Below, in pieces: positions 1 to 55,748 of a DNA stretch of 64,000 bases. Under the pieces are notes generated by a model. The model did no database searches. It worked only from the letters and a program-made list of their open reading frames with translations, and was not told the origin of the DNA. How positions within the stretch are numbered: the stretch's first letter is position 1; each line of letters begins with the position of its first letter. The position numbers and the translations under genes are program-made. The stretch comes from a virus: positions 32,001 to 96,000 of the IMG/VR virus record IMGVR_UViG_3300042884_001120; one strand, written 5' to 3'.

Positions 1-490
1 TCCAATCTGAAATTATTTGAGGAAAAAATAAAATAGTGCCAGAATCTGTAAATTTGTTGGCAACCATTTTATATGGTTCAATATTTAATAACTCATTTGT
101 GCTTGGTTTGTACATTCCAGCATAAGAAGTAATAATCGGCTTGGTAGATTTGGTAGACTTCATCATGCCTACTAACTCTTCGTCCCAATTTTGTGCAAAT
201 CTGTGATGACTATCTAGTTGCATTGTATATTTTTCGCCATTCCATAGTTTTTGGATAAGGCTTCTTGCCCAACATAATCCCTTACTTTCATACCAAGGCA
301 CATCTATAATTTGAAATCTATCATCATCTTTAAATTCATCCAAAGATTCATGCTCATCCCTCTGCCAACAAATACCAAAAGTAAGATTTTCTGGATATTT
401 TGCCTTGTCGAGACAGTCTTTTATGGTTGGTAGTAGCTCCGGATCTCTATATGAAGCTATCTGCACAAAAATTTTGTTAATTTCGTCCAT
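1..490 (-). CDS. GT60-like (Skp1/polypeptide-type) GlcNAc transferase, 3'-truncated at window edge
   Basis: Not in the ORF track; translated by hand from ATG at 490: MDEINKIFVQIASYRDPELLPTIKDCLDKAKYPENLTFGICWQ...SKGLCWARSLIQKLWNGEKYTMQLDSHHRFAQNWD. IASYRD, G.CWAR and QLDSH.RF are typical motifs of the GlcNAc-transferase family. Confidence 0.85.
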   Translation of the reverse strand, partial: MDEINKIFVQIASYRDPELLPTIKDCLDKAKYPENLTFGICWQRDEHESLDEFKDDDRFQIIDVPWYESKGLCWARSLIQKLWNGEKYTMQLDSHHRFAQNWDEELVGMMKSTKSTKPIITSYAGMYKPSTNELLNIEPYKMVANKFTDSGTILFFPQIISDW

Positions 491-543
491 ATTAATTATA
501 GATAAACTGCTGTCAAATTCCAAAATAGCGTGTAATATTGTTT

Positions 544-888
544 ATGTCAGCATATTCATTCATTGGAACAGCGAGTTTAGCTACAGGACAGGCCACTCCC
601 TTTACTGGGGAATGGGCAAACGTTGCGGTGGCTAGAAATATCATGCTTGCAGTTTACGGCAATAAATCCGGTACTGTAAAAGTTGGGGTACAGTGTAAAA
701 CAGCATTATCTGGATCAGCTGTTTTTCAGACTGGCGGCATCTATGAGGGCATTGACATATATGAATTTAGTCAGGTTGGGTCGGGCTATGCATCGCCTGC
801 TTTTATGGATTCGCCTGTTAGTCATATTAGATTATACTGTAATGAAACAGGTAATAATATTTGGGGTTACGCAAGTCTACAGAATTAA
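544..888 (+). CDS. small beta-rich putative virion protein, paralogous to an internal module of 53604..55748
   Basis: ORF track 538..888. ATG at 544 preferred because it lies 8 nt after GTGTAA (530-535). Shares LATGQ..FTG.W..V and NIW with the 54 kb protein. Confidence 0.7.
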   Translation: MSAYSFIGTASLATGQATPFTGEWANVAVARNIMLAVYGNKSGTVKVGVQCKTALSGSAVFQTGGIYEGIDIYEFSQVGSGYASPAFMDSPVSHIRLYCNETGNNIWGYASLQN

Positions 889-889
889 A

Positions 890-2028: not shown

Positions 2029-2030
2029 TT

Positions 2031-3161
2031 ATGTCGCTAAATACAGAAGAAATTTACAAAAAATTAGGAAATTCATTAGAAATTTCGGTACTGAAAGGCA
2101 CTAACTTATTCGCAACTGGCGCTAATAAAGCTAGTGTTTCTAAAACCTCAGTTAGACCAATTATATCTGATGATTCGTCTGTATTTACGGCGGGTATTCT
2201 AGTAGAAAAGGGTACAAATAAATTCGATTGTACTGTTTTATCTCAAGATTCTAATATATTTTATACATCAGAAATTAGTATTGAAGATACTCAATATGGA
2301 GAATATCAGAAATTTTTGATCCCATTGGGTTTAAAATTGGGAGATACGGATAATGAAAATCTTACTTTTAACCCAGTGAGACTAGTGACTGGGCATTCTA
2401 TAGAATATGGCGCATTAGATTTTAGCGCACGTATTTATCCTAATAATTATTATGGTAAATGTGATAGTGTAATTGATGGTTTATTGTGTGTTTCAACTGG
2501 TAGTGAGGCAGATAAAAAAATAGTATTCGTATCTGACCATGATTTGATTACTGGCAGGGCTTTTAGTGGTTTATATACTACTGGTTCATATGCTACTGGT
2601 AGTTTTTATTCTGGCGTAACTAGCGTAAATAAAACCGGATGTATAGCAAGTGGTTTGGTTGCCAACCCGTATTTATCGGGAGGATTTTTAAGTGGTTTTA
2701 ATGATTATTTAAAACAGTCTGGAAATTTGACAGGAACTAACTTTTTTAATCTTTACGGCAATACTCTTGGAAATGTAAATTCCGGAGTTACTTGGGATGG
2801 CACAATACCATCGGGAGTTCCTTACTCTATTTTTATATTAAGTACTGGGGGTTTTTCCAGTAAAATGCTAGATCTTTCTATATATAATACTGGTATTCAA
2901 AATTTATTTTCTAGCGGAAGTTCTTTTGAGGGGCTGTCCGTATCTTTAAGTGGGGAACTTGATTTAGTATTAAATAATTTATTTTTAAATTCTTATAGTG
3001 GCATTGGCAATGGTATTGCTAGAACCGATAGATTTGCACAGTCTACTGCCTATTTGAATGCTATTAAAGATATAGAGGAACAGAAATATTCTGTACAAAA
3101 TACTTACAGGCAGCTAATTAATACCACCCCATCATCATTAACTACTGGTGAGGATAGCTAG
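2031..3161 (+). CDS. putative virion structural protein (SG/TG rich)
   Basis: 376 aa, starts 2 nt after the previous gene, e.g. ITGRAFSGLYTTGSYATGSFYSGVTS. Confidence 0.65.
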   Translation: MSLNTEEIYKKLGNSLEISVLKGTNLFATGANKASVSKTSVRPIISDDSSVFTAGILVEKGTNKFDCTVLSQDSNIFYTSEISIEDTQYGEYQKFLIPLGLKLGDTDNENLTFNPVRLVTGHSIEYGALDFSARIYPNNYYGKCDSVIDGLLCVSTGSEADKKIVFVSDHDLITGRAFSGLYTTGSYATGSFYSGVTSVNKTGCIASGLVANPYLSGGFLSGFNDYLKQSGNLTGTNFFNLYGNTLGNVNSGVTWDGTIPSGVPYSIFILSTGGFSSKMLDLSIYNTGIQNLFSSGSSFEGLSVSLSGELDLVLNNLFLNSYSGIGNGIARTDRFAQSTAYLNAIKDIEEQKYSVQNTYRQLINTTPSSLTTGEDS

Positions 3162-3172
3162 GCAAATTTGTT

Positions 3173-13195: not shown

Positions 13196-13975
13196 TTAAT
13201 AATCGCAAGATTTTATAAAAAGAGATTTATATGTATCAAATTTTCTATGCAATTTAAAGGATAATTTTTTTTTATAAATATAGTCTAAAAATATTTTTTG
13301 ATTTTTTTTGTGTAAAATCTCAAACCTAGAAAAACTAGTAGTAGATGTTTTGTATCTATAAATGTTATATTTAATATTTAAATTAGTACTTAATGTAATT
13401 AAAGCGTCCCATTTTTGATGATAAGATCCACATATTGTTAGTGTCTTTGAAATATGCCCATCGGCATCAAACCATCCTCTAAAAAAATGGTTATGTAGTT
13501 TATGCGGAATCAAAGAAAGTATTTTTACTGGGCTTTCTAGGGATTTATTGCAAAAATCGCTATTTTGCAAAAATATTGCTAATTTTTTATGGTTAAAATA
13601 AAACATGGTCTGGGGTTTCCAATTAGATTTTTGTGGTTTTTTTTGATGTATTTTCCACCTATTATCAAATAGGTTTTTAATATCTATAGCGTCCTCGCGC
13701 TTTATCGTAAGAGAAACGTGCCCCCCTCTTGAGGTGCTTTTTACTGTGCCATCTCCCCAAATAAAACCCAATAAATAAGAAATATTTTCTGTATTTATAT
13801 GAATAAAATCATTAATATTTGAATTATTTTCTCTGCAATTGGTTTTTATTTTAAGCTCACTAGCTACTCTCCTGATGGAGTCGGAACTTCTATTTATATA
13901 TTCTTTAACTTTTTTACAGCCGCCGTTTGGGTAATGTATCCTAATAATTTGTTTTTCGTAATCAGAATACTTCAT
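13196..13975 (-). mobile_element. free-standing double-motif LAGLIDADG homing endonuclease
   Basis: YLLGFIWGDG and FFRGWFDADG motifs; own GTGTAA motif; very AT-rich; no room for an intron core. Confidence 0.85.
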
Positions 13976-34048: not shown

Positions 34049-34052
34049 AAGA

Positions 34053-35552: not shown

Positions 35553-35996
35553 ATGAAAAGAATAGAGTTTTATAAACCACAGAAATCTGGAAATGGCACT
35601 TGTGCAACTTTTGAGAACGTAACTGCAATAGATGACCAGAAGAAAAATGGGTTTTATGTAAACCTATTAAAGCAGCACTCATGGAACGACTCTTCAAAGA
35701 CAGGGTCATTCAAGGAGAATGTAAATATCGCAGAAAAACATAAGAAAATAAAACTAAATGATTTAGAGCTTTGTAATATTCTATATGTTTTAGAGTCAAA
35801 TTCTGAAAAAAAATTCTCAACAGTACATAAAAATGTGGATAAGACCACCCCAATATTCTTCGAGCCATATATCAAAGATGGGGCTTTTATTGGTCACGTA
35901 TTAAAAATAGATGGAGTAGGAATAGCTTTTAATCTTGTAGAGTCAATCAAATTAAGAGAGTATATTAAAGCATCACTGCAAAATCTATATTCCTGA
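35553..35996 (+). CDS. putative ssDNA-binding protein (Whirly/PC4-like fold)
   Basis: FYK..., FYVNLLKQ.SW, IKLN..E...I, FSTVH, FEPY, N..E...L; resemblance judged by eye. Confidence 0.5.
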   Translation: MKRIEFYKPQKSGNGTCATFENVTAIDDQKKNGFYVNLLKQHSWNDSSKTGSFKENVNIAEKHKKIKLNDLELCNILYVLESNSEKKFSTVHKNVDKTTPIFFEPYIKDGAFIGHVLKIDGVGIAFNLVESIKLREYIKASLQNLYS

Positions 35997-35997
35997 T

Positions 35998-37929: not shown

Positions 37930-37954
37930 TATCAATAAAAATGGAGGAATTATT

Positions 37955-39133: not shown

Positions 39134-39170
39134 ACTTGACTTATTTAGAAATTTTTCAGAAAATATGTAA

Positions 39171-39992
39171 ATGGCAAGACAAAAGTTATCAAATACAGAA
39201 TCAATAGAAAAAGATTCCCCCCTCAATGTAGAGCTAGAAGCTCCTACACCTACTCGTTACCTAGACAAGGTAGACGGATTTTCTAGAGATAAAAATGGAT
39301 TTATACAATCTATAGAGTATGGGTTTAATCCAGATAATACAATTAATTGGCGTGGAATGATTAAGCCTGAACATCTAGTTCCTAACAGGGATTCCTTTAA
39401 AAATTCTCCAGACATAAATCTAAAGGAAATAGACGTATCAACACTTCCAGACAACAAGCTCCTGATTTTACTTGCTGGTATTAAAGAACTGGCGCAAATT
39501 CGTGGTTATGAAAACGTAGAATATGAGGTAATAGAGGCTCGTCCGGATTACGTTGCGGTAAAATGCACGATTAACTGGATAGGCAATTATGAAACCAGAA
39601 ATTCAAAAGTCAGTTTTTCTGCACTAGCGGATGCCCATTGGGATAATACACATAATTTTGCAAAAAACTTTTTAATGGCAATTGCTGAAAATAGAGCATT
39701 TGTTCGTGCTGTTAGAAATTTCTTAAAAATTAATATTGTTGGAAGTGACGAAATGGGTGGTAAGAATTCCCCAGTTTCGAATACTGAATACGAGCCATCT
39801 ACAGGCCCAGACCCAGTATCACTTTTGCAAAAAACAATGAATGATTATAATATATCATTCGATAAAATCAAAGATGGGGCAATAAAAAAGGGTATAGAAG
39901 GCGCAGAAACATGGTCATCCTGTGATGATATTCCCCCATTATCTATATTTACTATAGTTAGCGGAATAAAAAGTAAAAATAAGTTATCTTAA
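39171..39992 (+). CDS. Rad52/Sak-like single-strand annealing protein (putative)
   Basis: LAGIKELAQIRG, VAVKC.I.W, SALADA, AIAENRAFVRAVRNFL.I..VG.DE. Confidence 0.55.
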   Translation: MARQKLSNTESIEKDSPLNVELEAPTPTRYLDKVDGFSRDKNGFIQSIEYGFNPDNTINWRGMIKPEHLVPNRDSFKNSPDINLKEIDVSTLPDNKLLILLAGIKELAQIRGYENVEYEVIEARPDYVAVKCTINWIGNYETRNSKVSFSALADAHWDNTHNFAKNFLMAIAENRAFVRAVRNFLKINIVGSDEMGGKNSPVSNTEYEPSTGPDPVSLLQKTMNDYNISFDKIKDGAIKKGIEGAETWSSCDDIPPLSIFTIVSGIKSKNKLS

Positions 39993-41696: not shown

Positions 41697-44600
41697 TTAT
41701 AAATTTTTAATACCAAGTAATCTAAATGTAATACCAGTACCAGAAGGCCCAAAGTTCTTACCGCTAATAACGATATCCGCCACATCTATCTGCTCATTAT
41801 CTAAAGTATTTAAAATATTAGAGTAAAAAGATCTAAGCTGAATTACAGAAGAATTATTACCTATCGAGTTAGATTGTATAGAGTTATAGTAATTTAGCCC
41901 ACTTAAAAGATTATTATCCCTATATGAAATAATATTAAAGTTCATTCCAGTTTCTATATCCCAAACACCAGTAAAGGATCTTACTCCGGTAAATTTATTA
42001 ATATATCCTGTTATTGCACCAGAAGCGTATCCAGTATAATAACCTGTTGAAGCAAACGATACAGATGCCATTCCTGAAAAATTACTAGATGGAGACATTT
42101 GTAAATAAGAAGTTTTACCGCCAATTAATGTAGGATTTGGGATATTAATACCTGAGGTATTTGATGTTAAAGTAATAGAATTTCCAGAATCCCCAATAGC
42201 TATTGAAGTTAAAATTATTCCACTAGGCCCAAAAGCTGATCCAGTGCATAGAAAAACTCCCGAATTATTATTGATAATATCAACTAAGGCAGCTCTGGTA
42301 TTAAAAAAATCTGGTGCCAAATAATTTAAAGTATCATCATTATATGATATACTCTTATTATTAATAGATATAAAATCAAAATTATTTAATTTAGTATTAT
42401 CAATATAAACAACTCCAGTAGATTGCTGAAGCCCAGTTATTAATGGGTAATATGGATAATTATTATTATCAATATAATATCCACTTCCAGTAGCCATAAA
42501 TGATTGATTGTAATATCCATCATTGGAAAGGCCTCCTGTAATACCAGTTAGATAAAAATATCCAGTTACTCCAGTTTCACTATAACTCACTCCAGTTAAT
42601 AATCCAGTAAATTGTCCACTGGTTTTACCTGTTACATAAATATTATTATTTGAAAATAAACCACCAAGTGAGGTCGCCTTATCCACAATTGATTTTTTTA
42701 TAATAGTTTCCTCCGTAGAAAAAATACCACTTCCAGTAATATTTTTTGTATAAGTTTTGTCAAAAACCACTTCTTTAGTTCCAGTGTCGTAAAAATAATA
42801 ACCATCAAAAGTATGCGATAATAAGCCAGTTCCAGTAAAATTTCTAGTCAAAAATCCCGTAATATTACCAATATACTTACCGCTTCTATTTAGAAACTTT
42901 ACATTCCCTTCATTTACTGTTGGAATATATTGAATTTCTTCATTATAAGCTCTATAAACACCACTCATAGAGTCTCCACTAATAGTATAGTTATAATCTC
43001 CACTAAAAATAAGTGGTACAATATCACCTATATTAACAGTATAATCAGCACCTATTAAACATGATGACTGTCCAGAATGAGTGGTGATTCCAGTTTTTAA
43101 AGCGGAAAATAAATTTAAATTTTTGAAATAAACTTCATTTTTAGGTATTGAATAACTTTCCCTTCCTGCTGGTATTACGCCACTGAAATTTCTTGCAACT
43201 ATTCTATATCTATCAAAATTCAAATTAGTAATATCATATCCACTATTTGATAACCAGCAATTTAAATATTGTCCAGTTGGATCTAATACCCATCCAGTTC
43301 TAATATAAGATAAATATACATCTTCACTTTTTCCCTTATCTCCAATATTATCTGCCGTTACTCCCGAGCATAAATAACAATTGGTATCTGGAAAACTATA
43401 TTTAATAGCTATCGTAGGAACGTTTCCCTTGGAACACGCTTCCGAATCTTGTACTAAATTTAATTTTAATTTTTCAGACCATTTTGCGCAAGGGTCAACC
43501 AGATCGCTCCCACTGCACCCATTTACTCCAATTGGCCAACCAGTTGGGGTTTCAACTTTTATATCTCTAGATACTTGAATGGGCCCTCCACACTCTGGTT
43601 TAAGGTTTAGTGTTGATAATTGCGTTAAATCTAAAATAGTTTTAAAACCACCACTTATAGGATTTTCCACAAGAGTAATTTCTTCATTAGTAAAGTCTTG
43701 ATCTAATGACGCCATGCCTTGTCCAGAAGACAAGAAGTTATCATTTTGCATGTTTAATTTAATCGTGTCACCCTTTCCTGTAAGAAGTTTATACAATCCA
43801 CTTCTACGATCCAGTACTGCCCACCTACCATCAAGAGATCTCATAGCATTTGTTTGGCCCTGTATTTCTATAACATCTGGAATTAAGTAATCAAAACCAT
43901 TTTTTATGCTTTTTGTATAAGTTTCAGAATACTGTGGACTCCTATCCACTAAACTAAGACTGAAATTAAAACCTGATATATAATTTCTAAGAGATTTAAA
44001 TCTAATGATATTATTGTAATCTTCCTTGCCACTGTATTCTATACCAGTTAGTTTTTCGAATTGCATTAAACTTCCAGTTATATAAATCCCACTTGACTGC
44101 CCAGACAAACATTCATATGGATACCACACTGGGTAAGATCTTCCTAACCTATTATTAAGTGCGGAATTTAAACTGTCAATGCTATTAAAATCGTTTGGAT
44201 AAAATAATGAAAATCCAGTTGTTGGATAAATTGGATTATTATTTAAATGATAAGCTTTATACAAACCAGTATAGTCATAAGTATATAAAGAAAAAGACAA
44301 ACTGTCACCACTAATGAAATTGTTATATTTAATTTCACCAGTTCTAGTTGCAAAAAAATCAGTAATTGAAGAATTCTGTGTTACAGTATTTTGAGAAGCC
44401 GCACCATCGAAACCTTTAAAGAACGGATCACTTTTAAATCCAGATTTAAGTCCAGATATGTATTGATCATATGCAGTACCAGAAAGTGCTCCAGTATAAC
44501 ATATAACAATATCTTCAGGTGTCTCAATATCACCACACTCCGTAGGTTTAATACAGTAACCAGAATACGATGTAAAACTAATGCCAGTTGATTGCGAAAG

Positions 44601-46184
44601 AGATGGTATCTTTAAACTTTTTAAATAATTTAGTTTATTTTGTTCTTCATACCCACTATTAACTACTATATTATCAAAAGTAATTTTTTGAACAAGTTCT
44701 ACGGCATAAGAAAAAACATTCTTAGATAAACCTGACATATTAACACCCGTAGAAACATCATAAGCAGCCCAAATTTTATCATCCGCTGACAGTACTGAAT
44801 AAGTTGGCGGCTTAAAATTTAAATTTTTTACTTTAACACCTTGCCTAACTAGCTGTTGTGGAGAGAAAGTATCTTTAATTTTAAAATTTGTACTATAAAA
44901 ATCTTCATAAAAATAATCTGACACAATAACACCAGCATCTCCAGTAGCGATCCCAGTATAATTAAATTTTGCAAATTCTCCACTATTTTCTAACCAAGAA
45001 TCTCCACTTTTATATAGCCATAAATTTTTATATACCTCTATTGCCGTGTCAGTTGGATAGCTATACCTATCATCGTTTTGATATAATATATTACGACCAG
45101 ATCCATTATTATATATAGTAGATACTTGCAATGGTGAAATTGTTTTATTCCATATAGCAACTTCATCTACTAATCCACTAAATGGATTAAACATAATGTC
45201 TCCACTAACAAAACCGCCAAGACCGAATCCAGTAAATAGTCTATCAAATGTACTTGAATAAGAACCGGCCAAACTACCATTCCAGTACAATTTCATGCCA
45301 ACATTTTGCTGCGATGTTAACACAACATGATTCCATCTATTTGGTAGCCAAGGTTGATATTGTGCAATATTAGCACTCTCCACCCCATCATATACCCAAC
45401 CACCTAATCCAGTATTATCTTTATCAGCTAAAACTAGCGCCTGATTTCTTCCAGTTATTCCAGTTCCAGATATGGTACCAAGCGTCCAAATACAAGAAAG
45501 TTGATCAATGCCGCTCATGTTATAAGCATTAAACCAACAAGAAATAGAGTAATTATTTGGACCAACAACTATTCCAGTAGAGTTAAGGTAGTTAAGTCTG
45601 GAGTCTGAAACAAAAGCTGCGGCAGCGTTATTAATTCCACTTGCAGACCCGACAAAGCCTGATTGTAATAAAGTATTATTTTGCCCATTAATGCTATTGG
45701 GCCTATTTCCGGCAAATTGATTTAGTTTCCAATAAGCAATCAAATCATTAGTTAAAAATCCACTATATATCCCACTTCCACTTCCAATAGTTTGACCAAG
45801 AGAAACTATAGCTCGATTATATTCAGAACCTATAGACCCATTATTAGTAGCTATAATTAAGTTATTTCTTAAAAAATCTCCAGAACCAGAGGTGTAAGTA
45901 GAAATAAATTCAAATTCATCAATAAAATCTAAATTGGTAGTATTAAATACCTCGAAGGCATATTGCCATGTAGGAGTTGGCGTTGGGGTTGGGGTCGGCG
46001 TGGGGGTTGGGGTAGAAGTTGGGGTTGGTGTAGGCTCAGTAACATCCACTAAAATAGCTAAATTATAAGTGTTACCAGCCGAAATACCACTAGCCAATCT
46101 TCCAGTAACTAAATTCGGGACATAGTTCTCCAAAGAGTCGCCAGAACCCCAAGCATATAGATATCCAGTTTGATTAGTTGCCAT
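41697..46184 (-). CDS. large virion/tail protein: single RCC1-like repeat, Pro-Thr linker, LamG/ConA domain, TG/SG-rich body
   Basis: YLYAWG..ISAG..YNLAI; (PT)n; LIAYWKLN..YSISCWF..WNHVVLT..LYWNG..FSGLVDEVAIWNK...IYN.G.G (LamG). Confidence 0.8.
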   Translation of the reverse strand: MATNQTGYLYAWGSGDSLENYVPNLVTGRLASGISAGNTYNLAILVDVTEPTPTPTSTPTPTPTPTPTPTPTWQYAFEVFNTTNLDFIDEFEFISTYTSGSGDFLRNNLIIATNNGSIGSEYNRAIVSLGQTIGSGSGIYSGFLTNDLIAYWKLNQFAGNRPNSINGQNNTLLQSGFVGSASGINNAAAAFVSDSRLNYLNSTGIVVGPNNYSISCWFNAYNMSGIDQLSCIWTLGTISGTGITGRNQALVLADKDNTGLGGWVYDGVESANIAQYQPWLPNRWNHVVLTSQQNVGMKLYWNGSLAGSYSSTFDRLFTGFGLGGFVSGDIMFNPFSGLVDEVAIWNKTISPLQVSTIYNNGSGRNILYQNDDRYSYPTDTAIEVYKNLWLYKSGDSWLENSGEFAKFNYTGIATGDAGVIVSDYFYEDFYSTNFKIKDTFSPQQLVRQGVKVKNLNFKPPTYSVLSADDKIWAAYDVSTGVNMSGLSKNVFSYAVELVQKITFDNIVVNSGYEEQNKLNYLKSLKIPSLSQSTGISFTSYSGYCIKPTECGDIETPEDIVICYTGALSGTAYDQYISGLKSGFKSDPFFKGFDGAASQNTVTQNSSITDFFATRTGEIKYNNFISGDSLSFSLYTYDYTGLYKAYHLNNNPIYPTTGFSLFYPNDFNSIDSLNSALNNRLGRSYPVWYPYECLSGQSSGIYITGSLMQFEKLTGIEYSGKEDYNNIIRFKSLRNYISGFNFSLSLVDRSPQYSETYTKSIKNGFDYLIPDVIEIQGQTNAMRSLDGRWAVLDRRSGLYKLLTGKGDTIKLNMQNDNFLSSGQGMASLDQDFTNEEITLVENPISGGFKTILDLTQLSTLNLKPECGGPIQVSRDIKVETPTGWPIGVNGCSGSDLVDPCAKWSEKLKLNLVQDSEACSKGNVPTIAIKYSFPDTNCYLCSGVTADNIGDKGKSEDVYLSYIRTGWVLDPTGQYLNCWLSNSGYDITNLNFDRYRIVARNFSGVIPAGRESYSIPKNEVYFKNLNLFSALKTGITTHSGQSSCLIGADYTVNIGDIVPLIFSGDYNYTISGDSMSGVYRAYNEEIQYIPTVNEGNVKFLNRSGKYIGNITGFLTRNFTGTGLLSHTFDGYYFYDTGTKEVVFDKTYTKNITGSGIFSTEETIIKKSIVDKATSLGGLFSNNNIYVTGKTSGQFTGLLTGVSYSETGVTGYFYLTGITGGLSNDGYYNQSFMATGSGYYIDNNNYPYYPLITGLQQSTGVVYIDNTKLNNFDFISINNKSISYNDDTLNYLAPDFFNTRAALVDIINNNSGVFLCTGSAFGPSGIILTSIAIGDSGNSITLTSNTSGINIPNPTLIGGKTSYLQMSPSSNFSGMASVSFASTGYYTGYASGAITGYINKFTGVRSFTGVWDIETGMNFNIISYRDNNLLSGLNYYNSIQSNSIGNNSSVIQLRSFYSNILNTLDNEQIDVADIVISGKNFGPSGTGITFRLLGIKNL
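45970..46035 (-). repeat. degenerate 6-nt coding repeat (Pro-Thr linker)
   Basis: Encodes EPTPTPTSTPTPTPTPTPTPTPT. Confidence 0.9.
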
Positions 46185-46243: not shown

Positions 46244-47071
46244 TTAATAATCATAGTAATAAATGCCCAAACACGGCGGTATTGGCTTTGGAGGAGAACC
46301 GCTAGATTGTGGCGTACTAGTTAATAATAAGCCATGTGGATAATTTATATCAATATCCCTTACTCCAGTTAAACCTGTTGGGAACGGGTTTGGGAAAAGG
46401 CCTTCCTCACCACCCCATATCTGAATACCTGAACCTGCTCCACTATGAAAAGTAACTGTACAGTAATCATCTGCATAGATATCATAAATATCTGCTAAAA
46501 CTGTTGGAAAACTTAATTGACCATAGCTATCGTCTCCCCATCCAGTAATAGTATTATCATTTAACAATGCCACCGCGTGTGTCCATCCAGCCGAGATTTT
46601 TTTTACGCCAGTTAATGAATCACCTCCATATACTCGATTATAATAATCTATTCCCCATCCAGTTATTTTATTTTGTAATGTAATTGCCAATCCGTAGTAT
46701 GAATTTACTGATATAGATTTTATTCCAGTTAGCTTCGGTACAATTTTTTCAGAATACATTTGCCCACAACCAGTTACAGTACTATTGCTATCTAGAATGT
46801 AAGTAGTGTATTGATCCACCGCTATATCAACAGCTGGATAACTAAAATTTGGAATATTTTTTTGTCCAAAATCTGAATCTCCAGTTCCCCAAGCCAGTAC
46901 TTGTCCATTGTCAGTAAGCGCAATAGCGTGTTCTATTCCAGCGGCCACTTTTTTTACATTGTATAGCCCACTAGCAAAATTAAATTTTTCTATAAATTTA
47001 CCTCCGTTTGGTAAATCCAAAGTCTTATTGCTATTATTTCCCCAACCTATTGCTTGTGTTGTTATAATCAT
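46244..47071 (-). CDS. RCC1/BLIP-II repeat beta-propeller protein
   Basis: VKKVAAGIEHAIALTDNGQVLAWG...FGQ; VKKISAGWTHAVALLNDNTITGWGDDSYGQL. Confidence 0.9.
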   Translation of the reverse strand: MIITTQAIGWGNNSNKTLDLPNGGKFIEKFNFASGLYNVKKVAAGIEHAIALTDNGQVLAWGTGDSDFGQKNIPNFSYPAVDIAVDQYTTYILDSNSTVTGCGQMYSEKIVPKLTGIKSISVNSYYGLAITLQNKITGWGIDYYNRVYGGDSLTGVKKISAGWTHAVALLNDNTITGWGDDSYGQLSFPTVLADIYDIYADDYCTVTFHSGAGSGIQIWGGEEGLFPNPFPTGLTGVRDIDINYPHGLLLTSTPQSSGSPPKPIPPCLGIYYYDY

Positions 47072-47074: not shown

Positions 47075-50000
47075 TTATGGACATGGGCACCAATCGCCAC
47101 CACAGTCTAATGGTGCGTTTCGAGTTAAAACTGAGCTACCGATTACTAGCGAGGCGCCAGCTGCGGCCTCTTCGCCTTGTAGTTTTTTATTGCTAGCATA
47201 AACTCTAGTATTAGATGCATCAAAAGCCTGCGCTTCGACACTAGCATAAGTCGGTGTCCATAGCGGCATTGGACTAGGCCAAGATACGGTAATGGTATCT
47301 TCCGGCCCATTTAAGGTGCCGACTAATACTGGAGCACATCCAGCAGCTGCCGAATTTCCCGGTGCGGAGGCATACCCACCAGTTCTATAAACTCTTACAG
47401 GATAAGCAATCTCGTCACAACCTGCCGGTGATGATGGGTATGGAACCAATTCGACATCAACCACGCGCTCATGTGGTCTCCAATAACCGCCATCTCTATC
47501 AAATACACCGTCGGGACAGTTCGAGTCTAATGGTATGTCAAATTTACTAAAAGCAAAATTTCCTCGATGTACTATTAACTGTAAAGTTCCTCTTGAAGAT
47601 GGTTTTATAAAAGACACTGGATATCTATATATAAAACTAAAATTATTATTAGTTCTTGTTATAAGTGACTGCATCCCGCCATTTCTTCTATCATAAACAA
47701 TTCTTCCGCCATTAACTAGGTAAACTCTATAATCCACACTAGGATCACCCCCCATAATCTCTCCATCAATAACCCATGTACTACCACAAACATTAGAGTT
47801 CTCACAACAATATGCTTGAGATAGATTTACTCCATATTCAAACGGTGTACCTCGACCATTTATGGTGGGAAATTCTGGACACTCTCTAGGTGGTGGTGTG
47901 GGTCGTGGCGGATATACGGTTGGTGGAGGATTAAATACGTTGTCACAATCCGGACATTGTGGCGGTTCTGGCGGTTCTGGCGGTTCTGGTGGTTCTGGAG
48001 GCTGTGGCGGCTCTGGAGGCTCTGGAGGCTGTGGTGGTTCTGGGGGTTCTGGCGGTTCTGGTGGCTGAGGCGGAGGGGGCAATATATTTGGATCTATAAG
48101 CTTAAAATCTATAAAAGAACTATTATTGTAAGGATACACCACCTCGTTAACTGGTGTTACAGTTTTTGAGCAATTGCCGGACTCATCATCATATAGTGAA
48201 AAGGTAGCTGTTGTTCTTGCATAATTAACCGAAGGATGTTCAAATATATTACCAAGTTTATAATTTGTATTAACTTGAAGGGATAAGGTTCCATTGCTAG
48301 TTTTTTCGTATTTACTGTTTGGGTAAACTGGTATAGCAAAATACTTAACGCTTTCATTAGGTTTTAGTATATAATCAAATATAAAACCACTAATTCTATT
48401 TTCATCTGAAAGATAGGGCAAATTATTATTTGTATTTTGAAATTGGGCAACCAATGTTCCACTTTGCGTATAATTTGTATATCCAGTTCTATTAACTTGA
48501 AAAGCAATATATTGATCTTTCTCGCATCCAGTATAGTCGCTATGACTCAAATAAATATTAGAAGACATTTGGCTTGGCACTATATTTTTAGATCTTAATT
48601 CTAAAGTATGATAACCAGTAGAAAAATTTTGAGTAACATTTAATCCACCAGTTTGTCCTAATAAATTGTTATTATAATTTATGTAATACCCACCACTCCA
48701 CTGCGTACCAGTTCTCGTTTTTTCATAAAAAACATTTCCAAAACCTGTTTTAACAACTATTTCAGATGGTGCCACTTTATACAATATATTTTTATTATAA
48801 AATACACCCGTAGTACCAGTAAAAAACCCCAAAACCCCACTAACGTTCATACCAGAATAAACGCCGGAAGATATAAAATAACCTGTTTCAAAATTTAAAT
48901 AATTCAATTTATAGAAATTAGCATATAGCATTTCTCCAGTTGTTACTGATTTGAAATTAAATGACAATGGATATTGTATATAACTTTTACCTGTAATTTT
49001 AAAATTAACACTAGTATAATCTTCATCATCAAATAAATTATACTTACCAGATACGTATGTTATGTTTTGATATTGGGAAACTTTCTTATAGCCAGTTTCT
49101 TCCGTTGTTAATAATGGCTGTTTCCAACCTAGAAAATCTATTCCATAGCCTGAAATTTTGCTATTATCTTTTGATATATAACCACCGGTAAAATATGGTT
49201 TTTGATATATATTATCATATACACCACTAGTCCCGCCTATGGTTGTTCTTTTATATTGATAACCACCAATTCCAGTATTTTTTTCATAAACAAATTCACC
49301 GCTATCAACAGGTAAATTATATAATTTAACTATAGGTGTAAAAACTCCAGTTTCATCTTCCAAAGAAATGGAGTTAGGTATTCCAGTTACAGGAATTTCA
49401 AAATCTAAATCTATTTCGTCACATCCAGCAAAACTTTTTCCAGTGGATATTATTTGTGAAATTATACCTGTTGTGAACTTAGTTTCATCAAACTTATCTT
49501 TAATTGGATTAAAATTTTCTATTAAATTAGTATTCCCACTAACCATTCCACTAAATGGCCTTGAAAATACATAATAACCGGGTTCATATATTGAACCGAA
49601 GTCGCCCATAAACTTGCCAGAAAGCCTTTCTCCAGTTGCAAAACCATATCCAATTAGGCGAATTTTATCTGTAAAATTTCCAGTAACAAATATTGTTGGA
49701 CTGGTTAAATTAATAATTTCCAAATCCTTGGAAGCAAAATCACCAGTAATTTTTCCAGTATATGGCACGAATCCATTGAAATTACCACCACTAGATATAA
49801 TTCCATATACAAACTGATTAAATATAACTCCAGAAGCGTTACCAGTAATATTGCCACCAGTAACATTGCCACCTAAATAAGAAATGTATCCACTATAATT
49901 TATATTATTTGAATAGCCAGTTGCTAATAGGTCAGTAGTTCCTTGTATATCACCAATACCAGTAGCCAATGTACTATAAAAACCACTTACAATCTTATCA

Positions 50001-50992
50001 TCCGATATTTTATATAAAGAACCTAATCCGGTTCCAGTTCCAAATTCGTATTGTGAATTTAGCGCGTTTAAACCACTTAATAATCCAGTTATATTTCCAG
50101 ATAAATACCCAGTACCAGAAATAAATCCTGATACTATTCCAGAATTTTGAAATCCAGTAGACTCTACATTTCTATAATAATTTCCAGTTATTCCGCTAAC
50201 GTAATTCAAACCTATACTTAAATCAACACCAGAAGGATTTCTGAAAGATATATTATATAAATTATAGTTATTATTATAAATCGTATCATTTTCTGGCCCA
50301 AACGTAAGATAATATAAATCATCAGTAATTAGTCTACCAGAAATTTGAACGTATAAATCTTTTTTACCAATATCGCTATATATTGATATAGGTATATCTT
50401 GTGTTGCGGTATTGCCAGTTAACGAATTAACAATAAAGAAAGATGCGTTACCGTTAGCTGGAACAACTAAATTTGTTGCACCACTTAATGTAAAATTTCT
50501 ATTATTTGTACTGCCAGAAAATATAGTAAATGGACTAGATCCACTATTATATATAGTAAATGGAACTATCTCTCCAGCATAGAATACCAAGAATGGATTG
50601 TATGAAGTTTGTGGCGTTTTTCCTAAAATTGTTAAATTATTTAAATTAACACATTGTCCACTAACATCTTTAAGAACCACCTTATTCAGATCGCCAGTAG
50701 TATTTCTCTCTAAACCCAAATATAAAGGTATGTTATTTTTATATAAATCTAATGTTTTTGTACCAATATTTCCGGATAACCCCAAAATTTCATTGTTCAG
50801 ATATGAACCAACTACTTCGTTCTTTGGCGAAAGAATCTTACCATTATGAAGAGTAAATATATTACAATTACCACCGATCCCAGAAAAAGATGCCGAAAAT
50901 TTTCCATAAGTGTTTGCAATTTCATATGAAGAACTCCAATTTATACTTTTTTGTGGATAGATTGTCCTATACCTTTCACCTGTAATTACCAT
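47075..50992 (-). CDS. large TG/SG-rich virion protein with Calx-beta-like domain, Pro-rich linker and Cys-containing C-terminal domain
   Basis: Y...E....F.V.RTG...PNES.K...I.V..N..YE...L...TAT..LYDDE (Calx-beta-like); PPEPPEPPQ repeats. Confidence 0.78.
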   Translation of the reverse strand: MVITGERYRTIYPQKSINWSSSYEIANTYGKFSASFSGIGGNCNIFTLHNGKILSPKNEVVGSYLNNEILGLSGNIGTKTLDLYKNNIPLYLGLERNTTGDLNKVVLKDVSGQCVNLNNLTILGKTPQTSYNPFLVFYAGEIVPFTIYNSGSSPFTIFSGSTNNRNFTLSGATNLVVPANGNASFFIVNSLTGNTATQDIPISIYSDIGKKDLYVQISGRLITDDLYYLTFGPENDTIYNNNYNLYNISFRNPSGVDLSIGLNYVSGITGNYYRNVESTGFQNSGIVSGFISGTGYLSGNITGLLSGLNALNSQYEFGTGTGLGSLYKISDDKIVSGFYSTLATGIGDIQGTTDLLATGYSNNINYSGYISYLGGNVTGGNITGNASGVIFNQFVYGIISSGGNFNGFVPYTGKITGDFASKDLEIINLTSPTIFVTGNFTDKIRLIGYGFATGERLSGKFMGDFGSIYEPGYYVFSRPFSGMVSGNTNLIENFNPIKDKFDETKFTTGIISQIISTGKSFAGCDEIDLDFEIPVTGIPNSISLEDETGVFTPIVKLYNLPVDSGEFVYEKNTGIGGYQYKRTTIGGTSGVYDNIYQKPYFTGGYISKDNSKISGYGIDFLGWKQPLLTTEETGYKKVSQYQNITYVSGKYNLFDDEDYTSVNFKITGKSYIQYPLSFNFKSVTTGEMLYANFYKLNYLNFETGYFISSGVYSGMNVSGVLGFFTGTTGVFYNKNILYKVAPSEIVVKTGFGNVFYEKTRTGTQWSGGYYINYNNNLLGQTGGLNVTQNFSTGYHTLELRSKNIVPSQMSSNIYLSHSDYTGCEKDQYIAFQVNRTGYTNYTQSGTLVAQFQNTNNNLPYLSDENRISGFIFDYILKPNESVKYFAIPVYPNSKYEKTSNGTLSLQVNTNYKLGNIFEHPSVNYARTTATFSLYDDESGNCSKTVTPVNEVVYPYNNSSFIDFKLIDPNILPPPPQPPEPPEPPEPPQPPEPPEPPQPPEPPEPPEPPEPPQCPDCDNVFNPPPTVYPPRPTPPPRECPEFPTINGRGTPFEYGVNLSQAYCCENSNVCGSTWVIDGEIMGGDPSVDYRVYLVNGGRIVYDRRNGGMQSLITRTNNNFSFIYRYPVSFIKPSSRGTLQLIVHRGNFAFSKFDIPLDSNCPDGVFDRDGGYWRPHERVVDVELVPYPSSPAGCDEIAYPVRVYRTGGYASAPGNSAAAGCAPVLVGTLNGPEDTITVSWPSPMPLWTPTYASVEAQAFDASNTRVYASNKKLQGEEAAAGASLVIGSSVLTRNAPLDCGGDWCPCP
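47961..48080 (-). repeat. 9-nt tandem coding repeat (PPE/PPQ)n
   Basis: ggcggttct / ggaggctgt / ggtggttct units on the + strand. Confidence 0.9.
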
Positions 50993-51010: not shown

Positions 51011-53599
51011 TTATATACCCGAATCTTTTAAGAAATTTATTTCGTTTGTTGTGGGCATATTACCATTCAGACTACCAACTGGTCTAATTTTGTCTATTAG
51101 GTTCTGCATTATATACTCATCACTTGGTGGTTGTACAACCTTATCTTCAAATGAATAAGAAGTATATATACCATTATCTGACACAGTTATCTGTATAGAA
51201 GAGAGCCCGTCACTAACATTATACTGAACTGGCATTAAACCAGCTACTTTAAATGACGCTGTTTTTTGCACTTCTATCATTTCATAGCTAGAGTTATCAT
51301 AAATAGAATCTACATAATTTTTAATATCCCCTTCTGGTATTATACAATTTTGCGAATTACCTCTTACTAAATTTAAGTTATCTTCTCTAATTTCTTTAAA
51401 ATTATAATCAATTTGTGCTACATTAGTACTACTAATATCTCTAGTTATAGTATATTGAATTTTTGGTATTACTTTTGAGAAACTTGCGGAAGCGCGTATA
51501 TGAATATCATATCCCGCATCTCCATCATTAAAATTACTTAAATCACTCAAACATTGCGATGGGGTAAATATTTCCATGCCCGGCAGCGTAATTTTGGCAC
51601 ACTGATTACTTTTTAATCCATACTTACCCAGAACCTTGCTTACTTGATCGCCATTTGTAGATTCAATAGACTCTACCTTATCTGTTTGGGCCGGAGTATC
51701 TAATGGGTGCGCCGATGCACCAATTTTTACTGAAAAATCATTTAATTCTCTGGCAAAAAATAATTTAATATTTGTATTTTGCCTTGCTTCGGGAAACAGT
51801 CTGAAAAGAAAGTTAGGTCTTCCTTCAGTATTCCCAAAAACTTTTGGCAAATGCTCCTCGTACCATTTGAAAAGCGAATCGTAATATTTTAAGTCATCGC
51901 CACTTGGACTCCATTTAGCATCTCTATTTAACAATAAAAAAGAACTACTTGCACGAATTTTTTTATCTTTATCGCCACCATTCGCCTGAGTAAATGGATC
52001 TTGATTTTGCTGTTGATCTGACTTTAAATCGTTCTTTAACCCAGCAACTAAAGAACCAGACTGGTGCCCAAAATTAAAAATATCTAATCCATTAAGATCT
52101 TGACGCGCTGGATACCATTGAACGCCGCCATCTGGACTCTCCGCGTCTATCTGAGTTCTACTATTACTCGCTCCGGGTACTGGGGTATTAAATTTTTTAT
52201 GCCAGAATTTACCCAAAAAATTCTTAGCCATATACTCAGCATCTGAAAACTGCTTTTCAGCTAACTCTTCATTTACTTCGGCAACAAAAAAGTAATAAGA
52301 CGGGTTAGTAAGCGGATCTCTATTGTTTTTCTTGTCAAAATCCTGAAGATTTTTTAAATCTTCTTTTGCTAGCTTTTTTTTGCACGACACGAAATTAGCA
52401 CTACCATTAACAGCAGAATATACATCAAGTATTTTCATATTGCCAAACTGACTCAATATCTTGTTCTGCTGAGATGGTAACTCTTGACTATCTTCGCCTT
52501 TTTGTATTTTATAGTAATTATTGGCTGTATCGGCATTTAATATTGCGTAATAACGAAACCAAACAAAGGCATCTCTTACAGATCTGCCATAATACGATAA
52601 TGCCGCCTCAAGTTCTTTTAATTTTATAAACTCAGTCCCATTCGGGTTTTCTTCGCTATAAACACTAGGATCTAATAGATCCTTCATAGTTAAGCACTTT
52701 AAATTTTGGAAAGATTGGCTTTGAGATAATTCGCATGGATAGTTTTTTACAAGGCCTTCTTTTGCAAAGTAACCTAATAAACCCCTACTAAATGTATTTT
52801 GTTTACTACCACCATATTGCAAATCAATAACATTACTAATTCCTTCTAACTCCGAAATTGCGGGAATTTTTAATGGGTGTTTTCTATCTACAAAAAACAA
52901 CTTATTAACTATTGGGTCCCAATAATAAGCCAATCCCAAATCAGAACACCATGCGCCTAAAACATCCTTTAGTTTTCCAGTATGTTGGGCACGAAACCTA
53001 TTATTAATATTAGATGGCGCATCGTAGGAGAGTGGTAATTTACCTAATAAATCATTGAATGTATAATATACATCCAAGATTTGAAAATCTGCTAAAGACT
53101 GATCACAGGTACTTTGATATTTATTTTCTGGAGTATTGGGGCATGGATCACAAGGGTCTATAATAGTTTCATTAAGTTCTTGATAACTTACAGTAGAATC
53201 ATAATTTTTATCGCATGGATGATACTCTTTTCCAACAATAATCAAATTCTTTGCACCACCGCTCTGAAGGCCATGTCTTTTATAAAGGCCAACATACCAT
53301 CTATCTAAATCTGCACTTTTATCTACATACTTTAAATTTAGTATTTTTTGATCTGGTGATTTGCTTATATCATAACTAACTAAATAACCATTAAAAACAA
53401 AAGAACCTATGCTAACTTTAGCAGTATCTTCGAAAGTTAGCTCGTTATCAATATCTGGATACCGACCATTTTCACTCACTACGCTAACAGATAGTGTAGA
53501 TGGTGATGATCCATCATTAAAATCCCAAGATATATTATAGGGTAGCCCCCCATAAAAATTTCCCTTGATATCACTAACTGTAAGAATTTTTGTAGGCAT
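51011..53599 (-). CDS. putative tail tip/baseplate hub protein
   Basis: 862 aa downstream of the tape measure. Resembles a hub (F.GYL.SY..., G.L.DVL..WC.DLG..YYWD); inferred mainly from synteny. Confidence 0.55.
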   Translation of the reverse strand: MPTKILTVSDIKGNFYGGLPYNISWDFNDGSSPSTLSVSVVSENGRYPDIDNELTFEDTAKVSIGSFVFNGYLVSYDISKSPDQKILNLKYVDKSADLDRWYVGLYKRHGLQSGGAKNLIIVGKEYHPCDKNYDSTVSYQELNETIIDPCDPCPNTPENKYQSTCDQSLADFQILDVYYTFNDLLGKLPLSYDAPSNINNRFRAQHTGKLKDVLGAWCSDLGLAYYWDPIVNKLFFVDRKHPLKIPAISELEGISNVIDLQYGGSKQNTFSRGLLGYFAKEGLVKNYPCELSQSQSFQNLKCLTMKDLLDPSVYSEENPNGTEFIKLKELEAALSYYGRSVRDAFVWFRYYAILNADTANNYYKIQKGEDSQELPSQQNKILSQFGNMKILDVYSAVNGSANFVSCKKKLAKEDLKNLQDFDKKNNRDPLTNPSYYFFVAEVNEELAEKQFSDAEYMAKNFLGKFWHKKFNTPVPGASNSRTQIDAESPDGGVQWYPARQDLNGLDIFNFGHQSGSLVAGLKNDLKSDQQQNQDPFTQANGGDKDKKIRASSSFLLLNRDAKWSPSGDDLKYYDSLFKWYEEHLPKVFGNTEGRPNFLFRLFPEARQNTNIKLFFARELNDFSVKIGASAHPLDTPAQTDKVESIESTNGDQVSKVLGKYGLKSNQCAKITLPGMEIFTPSQCLSDLSNFNDGDAGYDIHIRASASFSKVIPKIQYTITRDISSTNVAQIDYNFKEIREDNLNLVRGNSQNCIIPEGDIKNYVDSIYDNSSYEMIEVQKTASFKVAGLMPVQYNVSDGLSSIQITVSDNGIYTSYSFEDKVVQPPSDEYIMQNLIDKIRPVGSLNGNMPTTNEINFLKDSGI

Positions 53600-53603
53600 T
53601 TTG

Positions 53604-55748
53604 TTAAAAAAGGTCGTTATTATTATATAATATATCAGAATTTATATCAAAAATACCGCTTCCAGCATTACTGTCAAAATTCGGCAATTCTAAATAATCT
53701 ACCCCAACATTTAAACGTTTTCCAGACAAATATACTTCCGAATAGTTAGTATAATATCTATTTTCAGCTTTAATTAAATTACTATTTCCAGTGATATTAT
53801 AATCAAATATGGCTGGCAGTAATAACAAATCTCCAGATCCGTAAGAAAAAATCCCATTATATTCATCAAAATATAAACCCGATGGGGTTACAGCGTAATC
53901 ACAATTAATTCCAATATTTTCAATTTTTCCAGAAATCATTTTCCTGCCAGAAAAGAATAGCCTACTATTGGTTGGCCAATCAAGAATAAATCCAACTCCA
54001 GATGGATAATAACCAGAAGCCATACAGCCCGAAGAATTAATTAATCTATATGTAACCCAAGACCATATGTTTAGCGAAGAACCATTACCAATTGCTCTTA
54101 TTTTACTAAAATTATTATTCAATCTAGGTATAATACTTGAATATCCACCAGATATATTATTAATTAATGCTATATTAATCCCACTTTCAAGTCCACTTAT
54201 CTCACTTAAAATTTGTAAAGATACTGACCCAACCCCAGCGCCACTAGCATATATAAATATTAAGGAACTTTCCCCTGAAGATACGTCAACCCAATCACCA
54301 GTAAAATCTACTGACTGTCCAGTTGCTAAAAATCCAGTTTTTATTTCTGCAGATTCAGAATAACAGCCGCCCAAACTAAAATCTTTTATATATAAATTAG
54401 TATTATAAGCGTTTTCAACGCTATCAATTATAACCATGTCATTATCACTAGAATTACTACTAAAAAATACTTCATTTCTAGAATTAACCAAATAATCATT
54501 TGATATATTATTTTTTATGTCATATACAGAACCACTTGTAATATTTATTCCAGAAATTTTTGCCAATCCATTTTTTGAAATATAGTAAAAATAATTAGCA
54601 TCATAATTATTAAAAAAAGAGTTTTTGACATAGTCATATTGGCCCTTTAAATTTGTTCTATATGTATAATCATAATTGCCGGTTGGAACGCTTATATCAA
54701 CAACCGCATTATCTTGCATATTGTTTAATATATTTATTTTTGATCTACCAAAAGAATTGACAAAATTACTGTTAAAAACAACATATCCACCACTATATCC
54801 AGTTGACTCAATCACCCTTTGTCCAGAAAGAGGAATTATTCCAGTACCATATTCTGTACCAGTAAGTGCTATTTGGGAATAGCCAGTATACTCAATACCA
54901 AAATCATCAATAAGAACACCAGTAGCAATAATTGAATAACCAGTTATATTAGAATAATACTCAGTTATGCCAGTAGAATATCCAGTTATTTCATTAATAG
55001 TGACCTGTTCGACATAGGGAGTATCTGGTATAAAACTATGTGCAAAACCAGTATTTAAGTATACAATATCATTTAGATATACATAAGGACTAAACAGCAT
55101 AAACTGCTGCATATAGCCAGTGAATCTTTTATTATAGTTATAACTATTTACTACATTGGTATTATAACCTAAGTATATATTTTTAGGATCAAAAATATAA
55201 TTACCATCAATTAAAAAATTATTCGAATTTAGTTTGTTATAAAAATAATTATAATCACCAAATGAAATTTTATTATTGGTTACCGTTAAATATACAGAAC
55301 CCTTATCCGATAGCGTGGAACTAGAAGTGAAAACCTGAGGGCCATTATTTGTATAATATTCGAAATATAAAGCGTTATTAGCAGTGAAACCAAATTCAAA
55401 GCCCTTGTAATAGAATCCCGAGCCGTTATTTCCGGTATCTACTGTTGATATTAAAGTGCCTCCTCCACTAGCCAAATTTTCATAAACTACTACATAAGTA
55501 CTATCTGATAAATTAATATCATTTCCAGTATTTGTTATCTTAACAGAATTACCAGAAAAAAATCCATTTCCAGAATTATTCCAGAAACCATTTAATGTGG
55601 GAACTATCTGTCCGCTAACTTCCGCACCAATTCCACTAATATTAGTAATAGAATTTCCAGTTAAATTAAAATCAAAAAACACCCTGCAATTATCATTTGC
55701 AACGCTATTATATAAGTTTAAAAAATATGGAACTGAGTGATTTGACAT
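53604..55748 (-). CDS. TG/SG-rich virion protein with N-terminal LamG-like domain
   Basis: GGTLIST...FEFG..ANN.LYFEY...IYLG...FTGYMQQFMLF; internal module paralogous to 544..888. Confidence 0.7.
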   Translation of the reverse strand: MSNHSVPYFLNLYNSVANDNCRVFFDFNLTGNSITNISGIGAEVSGQIVPTLNGFWNNSGNGFFSGNSVKITNTGNDINLSDSTYVVVYENLASGGGTLISTVDTGNNGSGFYYKGFEFGFTANNALYFEYYTNNGPQVFTSSSTLSDKGSVYLTVTNNKISFGDYNYFYNKLNSNNFLIDGNYIFDPKNIYLGYNTNVVNSYNYNKRFTGYMQQFMLFSPYVYLNDIVYLNTGFAHSFIPDTPYVEQVTINEITGYSTGITEYYSNITGYSIIATGVLIDDFGIEYTGYSQIALTGTEYGTGIIPLSGQRVIESTGYSGGYVVFNSNFVNSFGRSKINILNNMQDNAVVDISVPTGNYDYTYRTNLKGQYDYVKNSFFNNYDANYFYYISKNGLAKISGINITSGSVYDIKNNISNDYLVNSRNEVFFSSNSSDNDMVIIDSVENAYNTNLYIKDFSLGGCYSESAEIKTGFLATGQSVDFTGDWVDVSSGESSLIFIYASGAGVGSVSLQILSEISGLESGINIALINNISGGYSSIIPRLNNNFSKIRAIGNGSSLNIWSWVTYRLINSSGCMASGYYPSGVGFILDWPTNSRLFFSGRKMISGKIENIGINCDYAVTPSGLYFDEYNGIFSYGSGDLLLLPAIFDYNITGNSNLIKAENRYYTNYSEVYLSGKRLNVGVDYLELPNFDSNAGSGIFDINSDILYNNNDLF

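Follow-up and report, generated by a model that had tools for sequence, protein, structure and literature searches.

The peripheral tail proteins of an uncultured lake phage known from IMG/VR record IMGVR_UViG_3300042884_001120 carry a large excess of serine or threonine followed by glycine, a dipeptide written here as [ST]G. We analysed bases 32001-96000 of this complete 154,360-bp record with direct terminal repeats, a stretch of 64,000 nucleotides hereafter called the window. In seven open reading frames (ORFs) of the window, and in one outside it that encodes a protein with a phage tail-tip domain (genome 7878-9389), [ST]G occurs at 2.3-3.3 times the level predicted from composition, with a pooled z of 24. 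The excess is selected at the protein level and is confined to peripheral tail and fibre proteins. A first-pass annotation, made from the letters of the DNA, had noticed virion proteins saturated with SG and TG and had proposed that [S/T]-G is a glycan acceptor selected on exposed virion proteins. The saturation and the selection were borne out by our analysis; the acceptor role is put forward here tentatively.

The [ST]G excess and the proteins that carry it

Expected numbers of sites were derived from the composition of each protein and from shuffles, and sites were counted per ORF. Chance and composition are ruled out as the cause by the shuffles, in which z reaches 14.7 for a single protein, and the 60-residue stretch that had been quoted as an example of saturation does contain 12 sites. 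In the rich set Ser or Thr precedes 54% of the glycines, while the figure for the other proteins of the genome is 16% (Fisher p 1e-68), with TG at 3.3 times and SG at 2.7 times expectation. Every other dipeptide ending in Gly stays at or below expectation save WG (7 against 4.5 expected), and PG, EG, DG and NG are depleted to 0.10, 0.26, 0.47 and 0.58 of the expected values, while the reversed dipeptide G[ST] lies at about 0.76-0.8. Gly makes up 10.7% of the rich proteins, and the Gly outside the motif 4.9%, near the genome norm of 5.9%; the dipeptide thus looks like a unit added onto otherwise ordinary proteins. Its flanks are hydrophobic at positions -1, +1 and +2, so that Phi-[ST]-G-Phi (Phi, hydrophobic) is enriched 5.9-fold, and Pro never follows the motif Gly (0 of 292). 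Thr is as common as Ser, and peripheral tail proteins hold 5-6 sites per 100 residues. Two other sequons, NxS/T (1.13) and the Bacteroidetes D[ST][AILVMT] (1.05), were tried and are not enriched.

The signal does not reside in the DNA. In the rich genes, A[CG]TGG is found 187 times in frame 0, 2 and 8 times in the other frames and 17 times antisense, and by this confinement to one frame the signal lies at the protein level and is not a DNA motif. In agreement with the first-pass annotation, a DNA repeat is ruled out, as the only repeats reported by Tandem Repeats Finder are the PT and PPE linkers plus a few short units. Codon bias can also be discarded as the cause: the use of ACT, AGT and other NNT codons before Gly is a codon-pair habit of the whole genome, and the preference for ACT and AGT reflects a genome-wide avoidance of NNA-GGN codon pairs.

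The rich proteins of the window, and the poor ones that lie among or beside them, are the following, with observed against expected sites and their ratio (O/E):

538-888, + strand: 116-aa rich protein, 7 sites against 2.4 (O/E 2.93)
1402-2028, + strand: 208-aa rich orphan protein, 10 against 4.3 (O/E 2.32)
2031-3161, + strand: 376-aa rich protein without family, 22 against 8.7 (z 5.3, O/E 2.53)
41697-46184, - strand: 1495-aa rich distal tail protein with a PT linker and a LamG domain, 96 against 29.7 (z 14.5, O/E 3.24)
46244-47071, - strand: moderately rich RCC1-like beta-propeller (RCC1_2, 1.2e-25), 12 against 5.3 (O/E 2.27)
47075-50992, - strand: 1305-aa rich tail protein (O/E 2.89)
51011-53599, - strand: 862-aa unenriched tail protein between rich ones, 5 against 7.3 (O/E 0.68; orthologues 0.31-0.80)
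53604-55748, - strand: 714-aa rich tail protein with a ConA/LamG-like jelly roll at the N-terminus and a fibrous middle, 42 against 13.1 (O/E 3.20)
55748-64000, - strand: unenriched tail core, with a 533-aa protein (Tal by position only), a 512-aa protein (Dit by position only) and the tape measure

The 116-aa protein is a paralogue of the C-terminal part of the 714-aa protein (29-35% identity), and many of the rich proteins are paralogues of one another. No Pfam or PHROG match was found for the 208-aa product. The 376-aa product has a sole homologue, 31% identical, in one related genome (G009), and the ESM Atlas was uninformative for it. Among the tail proteins, PHROGs returned nothing except RCC1-type families for 46244-47071 and one marginal match. 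The LamG domain of the 1495-aa protein (Laminin_G_3, 2e-13) holds 9 sites against 3.3 expected on its own. Within the 1305-aa protein the excess is uneven: residues 1-960 have 67 sites against 21.0 expected and a GC content of 30%, and the C-terminal domain (residues 961-1305 region), which is preceded by a Pro-rich (PPE)n linker of 55% GC, has 1 site against 3.9 expected and a GC content of 43%. By its foreign composition, this unenriched domain looks like a recently acquired receptor-binding tip.

Other proteins of the phage are much poorer, as the first-pass annotation had also stated. In the tail core, O/E is 0.99 for the protein starting at 55748, 0.17 for the one at 57375 (Dit position, 1 site against 5.8 expected) and 0.65-0.73 for the tape measure, which runs beyond the window end and has a weak PhageMin_Tail match. 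All phage enzymes have values near 1 or below, a capsid-module protein has 5 sites against 4.9 expected and a tube candidate 10 against 6.7. Two further moderately rich proteins are encoded outside the window, at genome 118616 and 120847. The former (118616-120547, - strand, 643 aa) has an autotransporter passenger PATR repeat (Pfam 2.9e-9).

Folds, relatives and conservation of the sites

The rich proteins have unlike folds. In an AlphaFold2 (AF2) model of the 714-aa protein, which is of moderate quality (pLDDT 65) and in which a "hairpin" at 243-319 is probably a mis-modelled piece of a multimer, residues 20-235 form the ConA/LamG-like jelly roll. Foldseek relates it to the lectin-like subdomain of clostridial receptor-binding domains, a resemblance of fold only. 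Of the 42 [ST]G sites of the 714-aa protein, 29 are predicted in loops or strand edges, and most of those in the modelled lectin-like domain are placed in this way, which goes some way towards the exposed turns that had been expected. RCC1-like homologues have O/E values of 1.8-2.4 in this phage family vs 0.4-1.2 in bacteria and eukaryotes, and at three aligned loop positions LTNV of the cellular proteins is LTG[VI] in the phage protein; some TG sites (xTGWG, LTGV) are also present in bacterial RCC1-like proteins.

Sequenced phages yielded no nucleotide match to the record and only distant matches to its DnaE, terminase-like and glycosyltransferase-like 643-aa proteins, and no relative in culture came to light. 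GC content is 36% for the whole genome and 32-40% along the window. According to Pfam, the phage has a DnaE-based replication module, a ribonucleotide reductase, ThyX, ClpP and a long tape measure, after which come minus-strand tail genes with no usable annotation. Relatives were sought with the Tal-position protein and the 643-aa protein as anchors, which gave 80 related loci, and nine whole records were fetched (G001-G009; G003 is a 46-kb fragment, and G000 denotes the present genome).

In G001-G003 the order of rich and poor genes is syntenic: the tape measure, Dit and Tal positions are poor, one rich gene follows, the 862-aa orthologue is poor, and the gene after it is rich again. G002, G008 and G009 encode 7-12 rich proteins each, and G005 and G006 4-6. 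G007 has two by the same criterion, one of them resting on only three sites. The complete G004 has essentially none (genome-wide O/E 1.06), and its giant tail proteins are free of excess for any dipeptide. Summed over five orthologous tube and connector proteins, O/E is 1.9-2.2 in G000 and G001, 1.5-1.8 in G002, G003, G008 and G009, and 1.05-1.3 in G004-G007. These graded values, together with the same folds lacking the excess elsewhere and the bare imported domain of the 1305-aa protein, point to a lineage-graded pressure on exposed virion proteins and not to a property of one fold.

Individual sites are also conserved. All 10 database homologues of the 714-aa protein are 2.9-4.3-fold enriched, and of the 32 sites that the full alignment covers, 17 recur in 10 or more of the 12 other sequences in it. 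Between orthologues at 32-43% identity, 47-69% of the sites stay [ST]G, vs roughly 20-25% expected, and Ser/Thr swaps make up 17-36% of the kept sites; the corresponding retention in the same pairs is 42-59% for other Gly and 27-46% for other Ser/Thr.

A tandem array in G002 (53420-69669) consists of four gene pairs, each with a paralogue of about 560-655 aa (0-0.6 times the expected [ST]G) followed by an [ST]G-rich fibre paralogue. The poor partners, of about 600 aa, were considered as glycosyltransferases and discarded, since they have weak matches to reprolysin-like metallopeptidases.

Sugar genes and their distribution

The window encodes a broad set of sugar enzymes, among them several glycosyltransferases (GTs):

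1-523, - strand: 5' part (174 aa) of a GT60-like GT, 413 aa in full at genome 31282-32523
21822-25594, - strand: accessory sugar-gene block, with a weakly GT9-like gene (21822), GT2 (22631), GT17 (23305), an FkbM methyltransferase (24129) and a GT-like gene (24800)
28238-29281, - strand: Gmd, GDP-mannose 4,6-dehydratase, family-core (Pfam E 1.1e-110)
32960-34132, - strand: GT4-type (group 1) GT, family-core (family profile against PDB 5i45, 7e-8)
35553-39992, + strand: family-core cassette of four genes for proteins of 147, 643 (35998), 392 (37955) and 273 aa (39171)

Eight GT genes had been listed in the first-pass annotation. Six of them hold, namely the GT60-like, GT2, GT17 and 32960 genes and those at 35998 and 37955; 21822 (E 0.21) and 24800 (no match of its own) are weakly GT9-like, and only via their G002 homologues. 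Pfam or PDB profiles support GT17 (2.9e-28), GT2 (2e-6) and the FkbM gene (6.7e-12). Gmd also stands, and the second FkbM gene that had been announced was not found. The full-length GT60-like protein matches Pfam PF11397 with an E-value of 3.6e-67 (profile positions 97-350, plus 2-45 in a genome search), and its gene adjoins three [ST]G-rich genes. The second-best PDB match of the 32960 family profile is chlorovirus B736L (3e-3).

The cassette deserves a closer description. PDB profile matches divide the 643-aa protein into a GT4-like part, a DUF4214 and a GT9 N-domain, and the 392-aa protein opens with a GT9 C-domain (2.4e-14), followed by about 210 aa. Since the N-domain ends one protein and the C-domain begins the next, a single heptosyltransferase-like GT-B fold is split over two genes. 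The gap between the two ORFs (35998-39133) is 25 nt. Among the 80 fetched loci the 643-aa gene is present in 80, and the three other genes of the cassette in 73-79, the 392-aa gene in 76. The 273-aa protein (39171-39992, + strand; AF2 pLDDT 74) has a weak resemblance to the Rad52/Sak/Mgm101 fold (Foldseek E about 0.04-0.1), and its role may lie in single-strand annealing, not with the sugar enzymes.

Two free-standing LAGLIDADG homing-endonuclease genes were also seen. One (13196-13975, - strand) lies between the exonuclease and DnaE genes, a place where G001 and G002 have no counterpart, and the other (25742-26584, - strand) adjoins the GT-like gene at 24800.

The first-pass annotation had proposed to test whether the enrichment co-occurs with a particular GT, and had stressed the GT60-like enzyme. 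The expectation that one GT tracks the enrichment fails, and the GT60-like enzyme is not supported as the initiator, because the core sugar genes are also present in the unenriched G004, the accessory GTs are patchy and the GT60-like gene has an unrelated distribution. The latter occurs in 2 of 20 family genomes (G000 and G017), and is absent from 18 of the 19 others, including G001, G003 and the complete, strongly enriched G002, G008 and G009. Homologues with 49-80% identity are found in unrelated viral contigs that lack the 643-aa gene, including a giant-virus metagenome-assembled genome, which indicates recent horizontal transfer among aquatic viruses. One of them, 68% identical, belongs to an unrelated complete 292-kb jumbo phage (G038) with a genome-wide [ST]G O/E of 1.08 and only mild cases of enrichment. 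The GT2, GT17, FkbM, 21822-like and 24800-like genes are patchy and independent of the signature, GT2 being present in G004. The GT60-like, GT2 and 24800-like genes are thus ruled out as correlated writers by their distribution.

The sugar genes common to all enriched genomes examined are Gmd, the GT4-type 32960 and the cassette of GT4 and split GT9. Gmd is present in 8 of 8 relatives whose record covers the region, which the fragment G003 does not, and 32960 likewise occurs in all relatives that include its region, G004 among them. An enriched relative devoid of GTs, which was to count against glycosylation, was not seen among the relatives examined. Genes specific to the strongly enriched clade include calcineurin-like phosphoesterases, a MoxR-type ATPase with a DUF2201 partner and metallopeptidase-like proteins; no GT, kinase or acyltransferase was found among those examined. 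Three calcineurin-like phosphoesterase paralogues of the present phage lie at genome 16401-17030, 20203-20880 and 29900-30796, and are mostly absent from the weak clade.

A ThyA-type hydroxymethylase is the usual source of the sugar acceptor in DNA. Its profile (PF00303) is absent from five complete family genomes and matched the control genomes; only ThyX is present. This absence speaks against a classical, T4-type route of DNA glycosylation in the family.

Interpretation of the motif

From the motif, the selection on it, its distribution and the inventory of enzymes, all of them observed, we infer that a sugar may be attached, by which enzyme, and what the glycan may be. Our tentative explanation, to which we would give somewhat less than an even chance, is that Phi-[Ser/Thr]-Gly-Phi is an O-glycosylation acceptor on exposed tail proteins, written by an enzyme of the phage core or of the host. 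The hydroxyl residue would open a tight turn, made by the Gly, that joins two beta-strands, a place accessible to a cytoplasmic GT-B enzyme during or after folding; the GT9-type Aah and TibC reach their acceptors in autotransporter adhesins in this way. As writers we would favour the family-core GT4-type 32960 and the pair 35998/37955; Gmd would provide a deoxyhexose donor. The alternative would be an enzyme of the host. Each phage would then shape the glycan in its own way through the variable enzymes (GT60-like, GT2, GT17 and FkbM).

Several observations favour glycosylation. The excess is large, directional, in frame, and concerns the dipeptide as a unit, in a hydrophobic context with Pro excluded after Gly. 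It overlays unrelated folds (RCC1-like, LamG and lectin-like jelly roll) whose relatives elsewhere have no excess. Sites are retained, with Ser/Thr swaps, between distant orthologues. The enrichment is restricted to peripheral tail proteins and spares the foreign C-terminal domain of the 47075 product. Finally, every enriched genome examined has Gmd, GT4-type and GT9-type genes, and a ThyA-type hydroxymethylase is absent from the five complete family genomes searched.

Other observations weigh against it. No GT co-varies with the signature, and the complete, unenriched G004 has the whole core sugar set. In G005 the GT4/GT9 pair directly follows DnaE on the same strand, as it does by gene layout in most fetched loci, and the weakly Rad52-like gene comes after it, a replication-module setting. 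The profiles of 35998 and 37955 match lipopolysaccharide (LPS) heptosyltransferases, WaaF-type 1psw (1e-7) and 3tov, and no TibC chain is among their PDB matches at E <= 1. The proteins of the phage that would not be targets do not avoid the motif (O/E 1.09), and at some sites relatives alternate SG with NG, as a plain turn position would. To our knowledge, no [ST]-G sequon for O-glycosylation is known in bacteria or phages.

Nearly as likely is a purely structural role, in which the strand-rich modules, lectin-like or fibrous, that make up the peripheral tail proteins of this family favour [ST]-G as a beta-corner or ST-turn. The motif would have spread through descent and the shuffling of domains, nothing would be attached to it, and the sugar enzymes would serve another target such as the host envelope (LPS, superinfection exclusion) or DNA. 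The placement of the sites in loops, strand edges or strand starts of the AF2 model, the strong positional conservation of individual sites and the interchange of SG, TG and NG at some positions are what such a role would produce, and the TG sites shared with bacterial RCC1-like proteins, the mutual paralogy of many rich proteins, the failure of any GT to track the signature, with G004 keeping its GTs without it, and the location of the core pair in the replication module fit equally. However, NG, DG and PG, the dipeptides that classically form turns, are depleted, the excess overlies differing folds that lack it elsewhere, and it is missing both from the recently acquired domain of the 1305-aa protein and from the tail-core proteins, which are expected, from position only, to be beta-rich. 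Besides, a fold where Ser or Thr precedes over half of the Gly is not known to us. A pattern that is graded by lineage and crosses folds speaks for a pressure acting in trans, yet no GT follows it, and this leaves some room for a reader other than a GT: phosphorylation, acylation or a phosphoglycan, recognition by an assembly factor, or a surface that binds a ligand directly, for instance a ladder of hydroxyls and Gly that binds polysaccharide. The calcineurin-like phosphoesterase paralogues and the MoxR-type ATPase with DUF2201, present in strongly enriched genomes and absent from the weak clade, would suit such a reader. Nevertheless, the clade-specific genes examined include no kinase or acyltransferase, the phosphoesterase family also covers nucleases, and we know of no precedent for such a motif; we consider this explanation quite improbable.

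Returning to glycosylation, the closest mechanistic precedent would be the hyper-heptosylation of autotransporters by the GT9-type Aah and TibC. These enzymes of the BAHT family are cytoplasmic, have the heptosyltransferase-type GT-B fold and place many sugars on Ser and Thr of beta-rich adhesins such as AIDA-I, TibA and Ag43; an iron-finger dodecamer and ADP-heptose as the donor are marks of the family. In the adhesin, the acceptor Ser or Thr begins a loop that joins two strands (PMC3835316). The hydrophobic flanks, exclusion of Pro and loop or edge positions of the phage motif would fit such an arrangement if a sugar is attached; GT9-type genes are present, and one moderately enriched phage protein has the PATR repeat of autotransporters. 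The phage differs in that its GT9 fold is split over two ORFs, lies nearest to LPS heptosyltransferases and falls outside the TibC/Aah branch, and that Gly is near-obligatory, whereas Aah has no sequence consensus. The presence of the enzyme pair in a relative without motif excess also counts against the parallel.

In mycobacteriophages, phage-encoded GTs decorate virion proteins, with glycans at the C-termini of capsid and tail-tube subunits (Freeman et al. 2023, as cited in PMC12619734). Here, in contrast, the proteins of the capsid module have no excess, the sites are scattered over peripheral tail proteins rather than placed at C-termini, and the hosts and phage families are unrelated. The GT60 enzymes (PF11397), known from Dictyostelium and Trypanosoma, are polypeptide alpha-GlcNAc transferases; the 413-aa phage protein matches their model nearly end to end and belongs to the family, but its gene is accessory, mobile and does not track the signature in either direction. 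Chloroviruses, which infect eukaryotes, bring their own Gmd and cytoplasmic GTs and glycosylate the major capsid protein through N-links at atypical Asn. This phage also brings a Gmd and GT-B enzymes, and the 32960 family matches B736L, but NxS/T is not enriched in its proteins. The xylosylation of proteoglycans uses a Ser-Gly acceptor core, Ser only, with acidic flanks. The phage shares the dipeptide core and differs in its hydrophobic flanks and in Thr being as common as Ser; the Pfam scans of the window ORFs, which included no search aimed at GT14, gave no xylosyltransferase of the GT14 type. From T4-type DNA glycosylation the family differs by the lack of the hydroxymethyl-pyrimidine pathway in the five complete genomes.

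In its full form, the proposal would be that a whole family of large, uncultured aquatic siphoviruses hyper-glycosylates its peripheral tail proteins via Phi-[S/T]-G-Phi as a defined strand-turn sequon, at about 300 sites per genome, with a conserved GT4 and split-GT9 pair, Gmd-derived sugars and accessory GTs that diversify the coat. We regard the whole of it as unlikely; if true, it would constitute the first sequon-defined code of virion O-glycosylation in phages. Should the motif be a glycosylation site, the sites of phage adhesins would be predictable from sequence alone, and virion glycosylation, so far a matter of a few actinobacteriophages, would reach into an aquatic phage family of wide distribution, which would matter for how the phages recognise hosts, how stable their virions are and how they evade grazers or host defences. 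Should it be structural, phage fibre and lectin modules would follow an unusually strict rule of construction that has so far escaped recognition, and that would help to predict folds and to pick out peripheral virion proteins where a genome lacks annotation. In both cases, the outer tail proteins of this phage family can be told from its core virion proteins and enzymes by the signature.

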